Of a stretch of DNA of 18,404 nt, positions 14,917 through 17,921 are shown in pieces. Within the stretch, counting starts at the first letter, position 1. Each line of letters begins with the position of its first letter. The position numbers were made by a program, and so were the translations under genes. Source of the DNA: a virus; the UHGV virus genome UHGV-0256895; one strand, 5' to 3'. The notes under the pieces were generated by a model. That model was not told the origin of the DNA. It searched no databases and saw only the letters and a program-made list of their open reading frames with translations.

Positions 14917-15380
14917 CAGATAAGCTCCACTGTGCAGTGCGGCGCATCCTGCACCCGGCTGATGGCCCAGCGGGCGTCACGCCATAAATCACCGCTTGCT
15001 TCCGCCAGTTCCTCGCCTCGCTTCGCACCGGATGCCGTGGCGTCATAGTCCTGGTAACGTTCGTTGAGCATGGCGCGTGCCCAGCAGTAAACCGCGTTGA
15101 AATAGTGCTGAATGCGCTCGCTTTTGCCGTCCAGTTGTTCCGCCGGGACTTCTGCCAGCGAGGCATACCCCAGCATCTGCTGGCGTCTGCGAAACTCATA
15201 CAGCTCTGCGTTGACCTCCGAAATTGCCGACAGCGCAACCTGCTTTAAACGCGGCTGCGTCACCGTGCCGTCAGTGCGCATGACACTGCGAAACTCCGAC
15301 AGGTCCACATCAGGCCAGAACGGCGTATTTCTGATGATTTCCGCCTGTTCCGGTGCCTGTTCTGGCGCAACAAACTTCAT
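14916..15380 (-). CDS. L: Head completion/stabilisation protein gpL
   Basis: Track ORF 14916..15443; likely start ATG 15380 with AGGAG 8 nt upstream (MKFVAPEQ...); ..NAELYEFRRRQ..LWRDARWAISRVQDAPHCTVELI resembles gpL. Confidence 0.8.
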   Translation of the reverse strand: MKFVAPEQAPEQAEIIRNTPFWPDVDLSEFRSVMRTDGTVTQPRLKQVALSAISEVNAELYEFRRRQQMLGYASLAEVPAEQLDGKSERIQHYFNAVYCWARAMLNERYQDYDATASGAKRGEELAEASGDLWRDARWAISRVQDAPHCTVELI

Positions 15381-15475
15381 GCTGCTTTCTCCTGAAATAA
15401 AGGGCGGTGGACGGGGTTTTGATGTGGCAGTGCCTTTCGCCACCCCGTGCCGCCCGTGCGCGGGGGCACGTTCTG

Positions 15476-16068
15476 TCAGCGGCTATCATTGCGCAGTCTG
15501 CGCTCCAGCTGCTGTTTGTCTTTTTTCACGCCACAGCGGGGATCGAGCTGTAACGCATGGTTGAGATGATTAAGGGCGGAAGCCGGATTACTTTCACTCA
15601 GGACAGCGCCAATCGCTTTATGCAGACGCGCCCGTGACTGGTCCGGCATATCCAGACCGTCTGTCAGCTCCAGCGTCTGCAGCAGCAGATCGACATCAAA
15701 GCCGGTAGTGGCAAGCATTGCGCTCTGCGCTGCGTCTGCCATTTCCTCTGCCAGCACGGTCTGCACGTTGCGGTTACCCAGCGGCATCACCCAGCCATGA
15801 CGCAGGGCATGACGCCCGATCTCCAGCGCTCCGACATAATCTCCGGCATCAATGCGCCACAGCATCACGTACATCAGCACGTCATCCTGTTGAGCGCCTC
15901 CGGCAGCCAGGACACCCTCCGCCCAGGCGGCGTATTTCGGCAGCAGCTCCACCTTGATTTCCGCTTTTTTGACCGTGGACTGAACGCCCTTGAGACGGCG
16001 GCGGTCTTCTGCCAGTTGCAGCAGCATCAGGTCATAGCCCGACGCGTGGCGAACGCTGCGCGCTGCTG
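15476..16068 (-). pseudogene. M: Terminase small (endonuclease) subunit gpM body; first 18 codons are separated from it by the N/M inversion
   Basis: Minus frame ..SAARSVRHASGYDLMLLQLAEDRRRLKGVQSTVKKAEIKVELLPKY.. is gpM-like from 16068 down to the stop at 15476 but has an in-frame stop just upstream of 16069; the native start (MSLSPARQHRLRVQAECQ) lies on the plus strand at 16276..16329. The track ORF starts at the internal Met 16027. Confidence 0.7.
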
Positions 16069-16272
16069 ATCACCCGTCTGGATAACCTGTCCATTTACTG
16101 GCAGGAAGACACCCGCCGCCGTTCGGTTATCGACAACCCGAAACGTGACCGGATTGAAAATTTTGAATCCGTTAACGAAGCCTATGTGGTTGAGGACTAC
16201 CGCTGCGCCGCACTGGTGGAAAACATCCAGATTGGCGACTTCAGCGCCGCCGCAGCAGAAACCGGAGCGTAA
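16069..16272 (+). other. N: Displaced C-terminal 67 codons of capsid gene N, on the opposite strand
   Basis: Plus frame ITRLDNLSIYWQEDTRRRSVIDNPKRDRIENFESVNEAYVVEDYRCAALVENIQIGDFSAAAAETGA* matches the remembered C-terminus of P2 gpN; the frame is open without a start codon and is absent from the track. Confidence 0.7.
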
Positions 16273-17047
16273 ACCATGAGCCTGAGTCCCGCACGGCAGC
16301 ATCGCCTGCGCGTTCAGGCTGAATGTCAGACAGCAGCTCACGACCGCAAATCACCACCAGATCGTCATCGTCCTGGTAGACCACGTCGATAAGCTCATTG
16401 ACCGCATCCATCACCACGGCGTCCAGGTTGGCATATTCGCCACCTTTCCCGACTTTCACCGCACCCGGTGTGGTTTCACCGCCCGTGGTGGTGCTGCCCA
16501 TGACGTGATCCGGTGCATCCTCACGGATTTTCTGCAGCCAGCCTTTGTTCACATCCTGCAGCAGCGGGTTTTCGCTACGGTTGGAGGTTTTCGCACGCTT
16601 CACGCCGTTAAAGCCGATCATGATGCGGTCCAGTGCCTGGCGTTTCACGATGGCGTCACGGATACGCACCTGGAAATCCTGAAACTTCGCCCACAGGTCC
16701 AGCTTCGCGTAGGTCAGCACCGTGTCAAAGTTGGTCTGTTCGCATTTGTATTCCACATCGATCATCAGCGTCGGATCGACAGGTTCACGCTCTTTCGCGG
16801 TGGTGTCAGTGGTTCCGGCAATGGTGCTGCCAACACCCAATCCAAGCAGCTGACCGGACTGCTCAGTCACTGGCGTGACGTTAATCAGCGTCAGGAAAGC
16901 GGCGGACTGCTGGATCTGGTCTTCCAGCGTCTGCTGCACAGACGGCTCTACGGTGAACTTGCTGGACAGTTCCTCAACTGCCACACCGTTCAGACGCGCC
17001 AGTTGCTGCAGGTAAGCGTTAAAAGCAAAACGGGTATTCTTCTTCAT
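16241..17047 (-). pseudogene. N: Major capsid protein gene N, N-terminal 239 codons intact; C-terminus displaced by the inversion
   Basis: Track ORF 268 aa; MKKNTRFAFNAYLQQLARLNGVAVEELSSKFTVEPSV...LVVICGRELL is gpN-like to about 16331; the last 29 codons (SDIQPERAGDAAVRDSGSWFTLRFLLRRR) are antisense of the displaced M start and N end. Confidence 0.8.
16276..16329 (+). other. M: Displaced first 18 codons of terminase small subunit gene M, on the opposite strand
   Basis: ATG 3 nt after the displaced N stop, MSLSPARQHRLRVQAECQ, resembling the gpM N-terminus; joins in frame to the minus-strand M body through the inverted repeat when the segment is re-inverted. Confidence 0.6.
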
Positions 17048-17063: not shown

Positions 17064-17807
17064 TCAGCAATTGGTCAGAGTGTCAGCGGGGGCGTTGCCG
17101 CCTGTTGCACGCTGGCGGTAGTCCTGGCGGCTGTCTTCATGACTCAGCTTATCCACCAGTTCGTTAAAGGCGGTTTGCTGCTCCTGCAGAGCAGTCTCCA
17201 GCTCAGACAGGCGTTCTTCCTGCTCAGACAGGGATTTTTCGGTGCGCGTGCTCAGGTTCTGCTGCTCAGTGGCGACCAGTTCCACGGCCTTATGCACATC
17301 AGAGAACCGGACGTCATCGGACTGCTCTTTTTTGGTAAACAGCGCCGTGACGCGGGCAAACAGGGACGGCTTGTCCTCCTGGATTTCTTCCAGTTCGATC
17401 ACCGTTTCCTCTGCAGCGGTAAAAAGATTGGCAGGATTCTGCTTGCGGTTTGCCAGCGGGTTATGGGCTGCACTGGCGCTGAATGTCAGCATTTCCGTAC
17501 CCAGACTGGCGGGATCATCAGTGGCAGCCAGGCCGACCAGGTAGGCTTTGCCCGTATCAGCAAACTTCGGGCTGACTTCCATAGAGGTGAATAATTTCTG
17601 GCCTTTTTTCACCAGTTCCACCAGGGACTCCGTTGGCTCAACGTCGGCATACAGTGCCATCTTGCCTGCCAGCGGACCTTCCGCGATTTCTTCAGCAAAC
17701 CCTGCGGTTTGTGTGGTTGTCGGTACAAATACCGCGCATTGTTTCACTGCCCCCATCACCGCAACCATAAGGCTCCAGTAAGTTTTTTCTAACGGAGCAC
17801 GGCTCAT
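17064..17807 (-). CDS. O: Capsid scaffold protein gpO (body); native 5' end uncertain
   Basis: Track ORF 17064..18029; from about residue 108 (..GFAEEIAEGPLAGKMALYADVEPTESLVELVKKGQKLFTSMEVSPKFADTGKAYLVGLAATDDPASLGTE...TGGNAPADTLTNC) it is clearly gpO-like. Upstream of about 17710 similarity is lost; the first 74 codons of the track ORF are antisense of terminase P. Confidence 0.7.
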   Translation of the reverse strand: MSRAPLEKTYWSLMVAVMGAVKQCAVFVPTTTQTAGFAEEIAEGPLAGKMALYADVEPTESLVELVKKGQKLFTSMEVSPKFADTGKAYLVGLAATDDPASLGTEMLTFSASAAHNPLANRKQNPANLFTAAEETVIELEEIQEDKPSLFARVTALFTKKEQSDDVRFSDVHKAVELVATEQQNLSTRTEKSLSEQEERLSELETALQEQQTAFNELVDKLSHEDSRQDYRQRATGGNAPADTLTNC

Positions 17808-17853
17808 GACAGTGAAAGCAAAGCGTTTTCGCATCGGGGTGGAAGGTGCCACT
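17806..17853 (+). other. O: gpO N-terminal motif encoded on the opposite strand (possible third inverted fragment)
   Basis: Plus ATG 17806: MTVKAKRFRIGVEGAT matches the gpO N-terminus as I remember it (MAKKVSKFFRIGVEGDT); after codon 16 similarity ends. The 52-codon frame (to 17964) is too short for the track. Confidence 0.45.
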
Positions 17854-17921
17854 AGAAAGTTGCAACCGTTCACAGCTGGAAAAAACGCGACAAGTGGGGT
17901 GACTATGGGCCGCTGGATCAG

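Follow-up and report, generated by a model that had tools for sequence, protein, structure and literature searches.

The question raised by this locus is what a GC-rich hairpin, followed by a run of U and looking like a transcription terminator, is doing in the middle of a phage head operon. The window analysed here, 18,404 nt of a virus genome (UHGV-0256895), comes from a P2-like prophage or phage (Peduoviridae, Elveevirus), of which it covers the late region, and its genes lie on the minus strand, as do all features described below unless otherwise stated. It is 99.8% identical to Escherichia phage Cartapus, an ICTV species, in which the gene order is O (scaffold), N (capsid), M (terminase endonuclease or small subunit), a 95-bp spacer, L (head completion), X, holin, endolysin, LysB, R, and S. 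According to the open reading frames and the Cartapus annotation, M ends with a UGA stop codon (TGA, 15478-15476) and L starts with the ATG at 15380-15378, which makes the spacer exactly 15381-15475, 95 nt. The L protein of the window is 100% identical to that of Cartapus (CAH1234684), and so is the M–L spacer, the U run included. The head and lysis operon, from O to S, has no other non-coding gap of notable size; in the annotation of the P2 record the O operon runs from O through S, with L to S downstream of the element and in the same operon.

The surroundings of the spacer show some features of their own. The C-terminal half of M (15476-16027 in the window, compared with L001 3577-4227) is TPR-like, and the protein ends with a basic tail rich in Lys and Arg (…KKDKQQLERRLRNDSR); the M proteins of other lineages end in similar basic tails, e.g. 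KRGRGRPKKVTG, directly before the RNA element. Compared with Cartapus, the window also has two short inverted segments flanked by deletions. The first, at 16060-16323, corresponds to L001 4180-4443 in reverse complement, and 16 nt and 122 nt next to it are lost; the second, at 17701-17854, corresponds in the same way to L001 6091-6244, and here the losses are 148 nt and 140 nt. These changes truncate the N-terminus of M, the C-terminus of N, and the N-terminus of O together with the O/P promoter region. Related prophages were matched in 985 of 5,426 complete E. coli genomes (about 18%), and the arrangement at the first inversion (15300-16500) in 0 of the 5,426. The inverted segments can be an assembly artefact, an engineered change or a sign of a degraded prophage.

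RNAfold predicts that the transcript folds into two hairpins, P1 and P2, with a minimum free energy (MFE) of -39.5 kcal/mol over 111 nt. P1 (15456-15469) is small, with the arms GUGC (15469-15466) and GCAC (15459-15456) around the loop CCCCGC (15465-15460), and its pair probability is 0.77. P2 is 54 nt long, -28.1 kcal/mol on its own, with pair probabilities of 0.8-1.0. Its lower stem, P2a, pairs GGGCGG (15450-15455) with CCGCCC (15402-15407), and an internal loop with one unpaired C on the 5' side (15449) and a CCA bulge on the 3' side (15408-15410) separates it from the upper stem P2b, where ACGGGGU (15442-15448) pairs with ACCCCGU (15411-15417). The stem is closed by a variable apical part of 24 nt (15418-15441). 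Directly 3' of P2 is the run UUUAUUU (15395-15401), followed by the Shine-Dalgarno sequence AGGAG of L (15389-15393, anti-Shine-Dalgarno duplex -7.4 kcal/mol). The original prediction, made from the sequence of the window, had described a minus-strand stem followed by UUUAUUU just before the ribosome-binding site of L, and this is what the fold gives: GGGCGG (15455-15450) pairs with CCGCCC (15407-15402), and the folding-energy check proposed with it confirmed that a stable hairpin does adjoin the U tract. It had also pointed to a dyad at about 15447..15469. The two halves are present on the plus strand, GTGCCGCCCG at 15447-15456 and CGGGGGCAC at 15461-15469, but as a functional fold the dyad had to be abandoned, since it is 4.3 kcal/mol worse, has an ensemble probability close to zero and lacks support from covariation. 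A reading of the CCA bulge as a K-turn or as tRNA-like was also discarded, by reasoning only, as the geometry does not fit.

The folding energy of the spacer is not in itself remarkable when compared with shuffled sequences (z = -1.62), and 12 of 200 shuffles fold equally well. Over 43 homologues the mean z is -2.7. It is thus the comparison across homologues, and not the folding energy of the window, that gives the element its significance. We compared the neighbourhoods of L in one genome per GTDB species and in IMG/VR. The M–L spacer is 87-107 nt long in 82 of the 83 distinct sequences, among them loci where the identity to the proteins of the window is down to 35-40% for M and L, and the element is kept where the M and L proteins share no more than 35-60% identity, as in P2, 186, phiCTX and other P2-like (pro)phages. 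The same architecture was found in P2 (NC_001895, 5901-5999), in the R–Q spacer of 186, and in phiCTX, Burkholderia Carl1, a Ralstonia phage, Stenotrophomonas Smp131 and enterobacterial P2-like (pro)phages, and in Mannheimia the element is present in an altered form.

The order of the parts is the M stop, a short flank with the consensus AACCGA, P1 with a CCC loop, 0-3 nt, P2, and a tail. In the consensus, P2 consists of the clamp P2a, GGCGG/CCGCC, a 1x3 internal loop with C on the 5' side against YCA on the 3' side, a P2b of 7-11 bp and a variable tip, and the tail after it is 15-27 nt, often begins with (A)CCUAUU and bears the ribosome-binding site of L. It is the unpaired residues that are the most conserved part. 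The C / YCA combination of the internal loop is present in 62 of 63 aligned rows; the C corresponding to 15449 is a C in 62 of the 63, and the bulge is CCA in 53, UCA in 9 and CCC in 1. The loop of P1 is CCC in 48 of the 63 rows. A P1-type hairpin of 3-5 bp with a C-rich loop was seen in 36 of 38 homologues, and its stems covary (GCUC/GAGC, UCGG/CCGA, UCGC/GCGA). The apical part of P2, on the other hand, varies in both length (18-37 nt in relatives) and sequence, and forms extra stems that are specific to the lineage.

A covariance model built from 38 non-redundant spacers matches the window at 15378-15478, covering the whole intercistronic element, with 88.3 bits (E = 3.5e-29), and the next match in the window has 8.7 bits. 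In 63 of 63 diverse sources, the window included, the model places the element at the M–L junction and in the sense orientation. An exact-word scan of IMG/VR with GGCGGCAC-N30-60-GTCCACCGCC gave more than 120 stretches, and 74 of the 80 loci that we inspected sit between homologues of M and L; the remaining 6 are chance word matches inside genes, without the hairpin. One copy in the window and 74 of 80 loci at the same junction imply that the element is specific to this junction and not a dispersed repeat.

The M–L junctions are bimodal: either the two genes overlap or they are separated by a structured spacer of 92-115 nt, and between these extremes we found only a single junction of 0 nt. 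The phages without the element have overlapping M and L. In the HP1-like phages the overlap is seen in 50 of 54 loci (8 nt in 47 of them and 28 nt in 3), and it is also seen in Zymomonas pZM41. Nearly all of the other lineages have the structured spacer, some in a version of their own. The Vibrio K139-like phages carry a different GC-clamped hairpin with the same ACCUAUUU tail, and a large BIBS67-like clade has the arrangement UAACCGACUA-C7-9-long hairpin-CCUAUUUGAG, with a plain run of C in place of P1. In that clade (IMG/VR, L404-L460) spacers that are otherwise near-identical differ in the number of C in this run, from 6 to 9, which can be slipped-strand length variation or sequencing error.

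Two loci with an unusual junction were also observed. Escherichia phage ESSI2_ev129 (L169, 840-1076) has an extra small ORF with tandem His/Gly-rich repeats (HTHTVGAHSHSLGG...) between M and L, and the M–L element upstream of L is reduced to its 5' half (ACGACUACCGCAAGCCAGGCGG...). In Candidatus Symbiopectobacterium endolongispinus (L067, about 990-1415) the M homologue seems to be interrupted or extended, with an apparent gap of 418 nt, and the element is intact directly upstream of L (51.7 bits).

The reading that the window itself invites is an intrinsic, Rho-independent terminator or attenuator, where P2 and UUUAUUU would release some of the RNA polymerases so that L, X, the lysis genes, R and S are expressed at a lower level than O, N and M. 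To call the site terminator-like, as was done at first, is fair for the window sequence, with its GC-clamped hairpin and UUUAUUU. The stem-loop is stable and GC-rich, its base of six G-C pairs abuts the U run, 6 of the first 8 nt after the stem are U, and P2 is predicted to be fully formed once transcribed. A step-down after the capsid genes would also make stoichiometric sense. With a d'Aubenton-Carafa-type score, which is indicative only, the window lies at -2.9, slightly below the threshold of 0, while the other 37 non-redundant homologues range from -8 to -69, and the window allele is thus the only one of the 38 that comes near a terminator score. The site was not listed in a consensus terminator scan of the window, and P2 is not a compact terminator hairpin with a loop of 3-8 nt and an uninterrupted stem, but extends over 54 nt, its stem being interrupted by a 1x3 internal loop and its apical part measuring 24 nt.

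The U run is also not shared by the relatives. A U tract within 0-2 nt of the stem is present in the window and absent or weak in 37 of the 38 non-redundant homologues. After the same stem, the tail is CUCUAUUU in 73 of 353 instances as compared to 21 with UUUAUUU, and other relatives have ACUUAUUC, ACCUAUUC or ACCCAUC. In the named phages it is GACUUUUC (P2), AACCUGAUG (186), CACCCUUUC (Burkholderia) and CCCAGCUCAU (Ralstonia), and the versions from non-enteric or GC-rich hosts have no U run. A single C-to-U difference (CCCUCUAUUU to CCCUUUAUUU) separates the window allele from its closest relatives. Since L to S are downstream in the O operon of P2, with essential genes among them, and the identical allele is carried by phage Cartapus, read-through must be substantial. 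Several points thus argue against termination as the purpose of the element: the U run is allele-specific, the scores of the relatives are low, the hairpin is atypical and read-through is to be expected.

Judged from these alleles, the terminator-like U run is specific to a variant and not a conserved feature, and termination would not be the conserved function of the element. The bulge, the C-rich loop of P1 and the flank are conserved although termination would not need them, and the conservation of the structure together with specific unpaired residues points to a different or additional function. Through the C-to-U difference P2 does resemble a weak intrinsic terminator in the window allele, and it is possible that some termination takes place, which would then be partial and secondary. 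A partial terminator as the explanation of the element we regard as unlikely, and automated terminator calls at the M–L site would mislead annotation.

If the hairpins are what has been maintained, their two arms should change together, and this was observed. In the covariance model alignment of 63 sequences, 94.9% of the stem cells are paired, compared with 80.7% in shuffles, and for P2a the figure is 99.7%. Changes on both sides were found in 13 of the 17 pairs (131 cells), among them 7 of the 7 pairs of P2b. The covariation score is 0.393 against 0.123 in shuffles and was reached by 0 of 500 shuffles, where it should be kept in mind that the sequences are phylogenetically related and that the P values are inflated; in a control where the partners were slid 1-3 columns the score was at most 0.094. 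As this alignment is fitted to the model, independent checks were made. RNAalifold found 10 pairs, 6 of them with compensatory changes, in a plain MAFFT alignment, and 13 pairs, 10 of them with compensatory changes, in the CM-fitted alignment A3. In an ungapped count based on anchors, 32 of 38 sequences had an unbroken run of 7 or more P2b pairs, and a position could be occupied by as many as six types of pair; for P2b RNAalifold and the anchor-based count agree. P2a also has compensatory variants, namely GGAGG/CCUCC, GCCGG/CCGGC, GGAUGG/CCAUCC and UGACGG/CCGUCA.

There are also indications of which of the strands folds. In an alignment-free count of P2b in 144 distinct elements, the sense strand has 928 Watson-Crick, 51 G-U and 8 A-C cells, and at the population level the intermediates between G-C and A-U states are mostly G-U. 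The asymmetry, 51 G-U to 8 A-C, favours folding of the sense strand, i.e. the mRNA, and the call in favour of this strand rests on the wobble pairs together with the direction of transcription. One observation counts against it: by MFE it is the antisense hairpin that comes out as the more stable one, by 1.5 kcal/mol on average, since the complement of the bulge, UGG, is able to pair. An assignment of the strand by MFE therefore failed, and the wobble-pair count was used instead.

Covariation and tolerance of G-T would also fit with a folded DNA strand of the same polarity, and P2 replicates by a rolling-circle mode, so a single-stranded DNA element is conceivable, which could serve for priming or initiation on the strand that is displaced in replication. 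The position is, however, fixed to the nucleotide between the M stop and the ribosome-binding site of L, in the sense orientation and in every lineage, and where the element is absent an overlap of M and L takes its place. A DNA signal need not follow the start of L in this way, and we know of no P2 replication function that maps to the M–L spacer. We consider this explanation very improbable.

The linear record of Burkholderia phage phiE52237 (DQ087285; L164, 1-66) stops within P2, 63 nt before L, and in several later records of Burkholderia phages the end is found 83-132 nt upstream of L. A role as cos site or genome end was considered and rejected, as the near-identical phiX216 has a P2-like layout and neither of the two papers reports ends at this place. 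It is likely that the assembly or the orientation was broken at a strong GC hairpin and that the later records copied the break.

In diverged genomes the element keeps its position, its helices covary and its wobble pairs are strand-specific, and this is what characterises a conserved cis-regulatory structured RNA. It is well supported by the sequence comparisons that the spacer is one instance of a family-wide, structured sense-strand element in the head operon of the Peduoviridae, and the element is a candidate for a new cis-regulatory RNA family, specific to the M–L junction of P2-like phages.

What the element does is more difficult to establish, but several observations concern L. The distance from the base of the hairpin to the AUG of L is 15-27 nt in all clades. 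The Shine-Dalgarno sequence of L is normal in the enterobacterial versions; it is lacking in those from Burkholderia, Ralstonia, Stenotrophomonas and Mannheimia, and that of phiCTX is weak at best. In the phages outside the enterobacterial group most of the neighbouring genes do have one, with Carl1 LysA, Mannheimia X and BIBS67 M being as weak as L, and in these versions coupling by an overlap is impossible. The predicted accessibility of the L ribosome-binding site is 0.528 in the native fold and 0.482 with shuffled cores, and it is higher in 35 of 41 cases; the gain is small, and any stable local hairpin would yield one. Taken together, the types of junction, the distance from hairpin to AUG, the Shine-Dalgarno pattern and the modelled accessibility appear to tie the element to the translation of L and to the untranslated gap more than to the 3' end of M.

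Some ways in which the spacer could connect M and L were tried and rejected. A helix between the region of the M stop and the ribosome-binding site of L, which would couple the genes by sequestration, was unsupported by RNAduplex in 42 sequences (mean z = +0.52, and 0 of 42 below -1.5), and it was suggestive only in the K139-like Vibrio phages (CUCCU...AGGAG). Spacers of 93, 94 and 95 nt occur in close relatives, and there is thus no conserved relation between the frames of M and L, which argues against a stimulator of stop-codon read-through or frameshifting that would give an M-L fusion. The same indels rule out a hidden coding sequence in the spacer on either strand. In the 93-nt spacers (L005-L011, L019, L025, L039) M and L are in frame with only the M stop between them, the spacer being free of stops, and in those of 94 and 95 nt, the window included, they are out of frame; the in-frame state looks incidental to the GC richness.

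Considering identity and mechanism jointly, the best explanation is a conserved cis-acting mRNA element tied to the expression of L and the genes downstream, and we give it about an even chance of being right. The largest single share of this falls to post-transcriptional control linked to L, which taken alone we put somewhat short of even. It is conceivable that the element acts after the highly expressed O, N and M genes and governs L and, via L, also X and the genes for lysis and tail completion downstream. It would replace the direct translational coupling through overlapping stop and start codons in the relatives that lack it, keep the untranslated gap of about 100 nt folded, and leave the initiation region of L single-stranded. 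The conserved, unpaired C-rich residues would then probably recruit a specific partner, which can be the ribosome or S1, an RNase, or a phage protein.

The need for a partner comes from the part of the element that a role as insulator or standby site alone leaves unexplained, namely the C / YCA loop and the C tract. A plain insulator has no need for an invariant loop, a C tract and an AACCGA flank, and a specific partner is implied. The M–L element could thus be a sequence-specific RNA operator, where the loop and the C tract are recognised by a conserved partner that determines how much head-completion, lysis and tail-completion protein is made relative to capsid protein, but in this precise form we find the proposal rather doubtful. 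In one version of it the operator would be a structured site for Rho entry and attenuation, and the anti-Rho protein Psu of P4 would be the antagonist, rebalancing the late genes of the helper for smaller capsids.

As a rival explanation, the element would be a site for mRNA processing or stability, where RNase III cuts the hairpin, or RNase E or RNase P an adjacent site. The mRNA of O, N and M would then keep a protective 3' hairpin and the L-distal mRNA would decay at a different rate. The geometry is of the RNase III type: a lower stem, an asymmetric internal loop and an upper stem lie about 20 nt upstream of the next ribosome-binding site, the total is 13-22 bp in the family, and in the window there are 13 bp in P2a and P2b together, 3-9 bp in the apical part and a 1x3 loop. 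The tails of the enteric versions are A/U-rich and single-stranded. Around half of the homologues have R-C-C after the stem, as is found in RNase P substrates such as 4.5S RNA. Against this reading, RNase III requires no specific sequence, and lower stems entirely of G-C are poor substrates, such an atypical lower stem being what the element has. Furthermore, the RCC tail is missing in the window, where it reads UUU, P1 abuts P2 and leaves no single-stranded leader for RNase P, and with an apical length of 18 to 37 nt the distance from loop to bulge is not fixed. A processing site seems unlikely.

The conserved unpaired residues are nearly all C or YC, and this can also be read as a Rho-dependent attenuator, where the hairpin would keep three single-stranded pieces together, the C tract or P1 loop, the bulge CCA and the tail ACCUAUU, and these would load Rho in the untranslated gap. 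The Psu protein of the P4 satellite would relieve such attenuation, and Psu is known to suppress polarity in the late operons of P2. The plain C7-9 run that stands in place of P1 in the related clade would agree with this, as would the base composition, with 34 C to 27 G in the spacer and a windowed C/G of 1.26-1.43 where the regional median is 0.81. Classical rut sites are, however, at least about 70 nt long, unstructured, C-rich and G-poor, while the spacer is heavily structured with about 40 nt single-stranded, most of it is base-paired and its C/G does not exceed the values given. Equal or higher C/G peaks are found within M, and rut sites are seldom conserved in sequence. We regard Rho-dependent attenuation as improbable.

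Comparisons with known systems give partial likenesses only. The intrinsic terminators and attenuators after capsid genes, such as Tphi of T7, have in common with the element a GC-rich sense hairpin, the U run in the window allele and the position after highly expressed head genes, and like them the element could create a step-down in expression. It differs in that its U run is not conserved, in its hairpin of 54 nt with a conserved internal loop, in the second, small hairpin and in the essential genes downstream. The RNase III sites of the T7-like phages (R0.3, R1.1) are also intercistronic, conserved in the family and about 20 nt upstream of the next ribosome-binding site, with a lower stem, an asymmetric loop and an upper stem. 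The M–L element has instead an all G-C lower stem, a 1x3 loop with invariant C and YCA, and a variable upper stem.

In structure-mediated translational coupling, as in rpmI-rplT and the long-distance interactions of MS2, structure around two cistrons decides how the downstream ribosome-binding site is used, and the relatives without the M–L element use a direct overlap of stop and start. A helix that sequesters the ribosome-binding site was looked for and not found at the M–L junction, where that of L is predicted to be open. The REP/BIME stabilisers are likewise GC-rich intercistronic hairpins that can shield the upstream mRNA from 3' exonucleases, but they are dispersed multi-copy elements of the host, whereas the M–L element is single-copy, phage-specific and bound to one gene junction. 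More speculative parallels are the rut site of lambda tR1 (rutA-boxB-rutB), where a hairpin organises flanking single-stranded C-rich segments, and the put RNAs of HK022, two adjacent hairpins that act on RNA polymerase. From both of these the element differs in having no sequence or Rfam similarity to them and in being placed mid-operon and not near a promoter. The closest analogues by architecture would be the T7 RNase III sites and the terminator-like attenuators after capsid genes, and by logic structure-dependent translational coupling.

A search of the whole window against Rfam 15 gave no match at the gathering threshold, and for the spacer at E<=10 the best were chance hits to miRNA-precursor models, with 15-18.5 bits against a threshold of 79. 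The phage records that we examined have no RNA or structural feature annotated at the element, the Mannheimia record having only a predicted promoter in the spacer. We found no description of the element in the literature searched, and a recent survey of 5,945 P2-like genomes (2026) does not mention it; the original papers on P2 (NAR 1991), 186 (Virology 1998) and phiCTX (1999) were outside the search and may mention a stem-loop.

P2 and 186 are classical model phages, and yet the gap between their M and L genes holds a deeply conserved, covarying RNA structure that has no Rfam family. If it is true that this structure controls L and the genes downstream, it would represent an overlooked layer of late-gene dosage control in the Peduoviridae, and also a ready-made test case, since compensatory mutants can be designed straight from the alignment.
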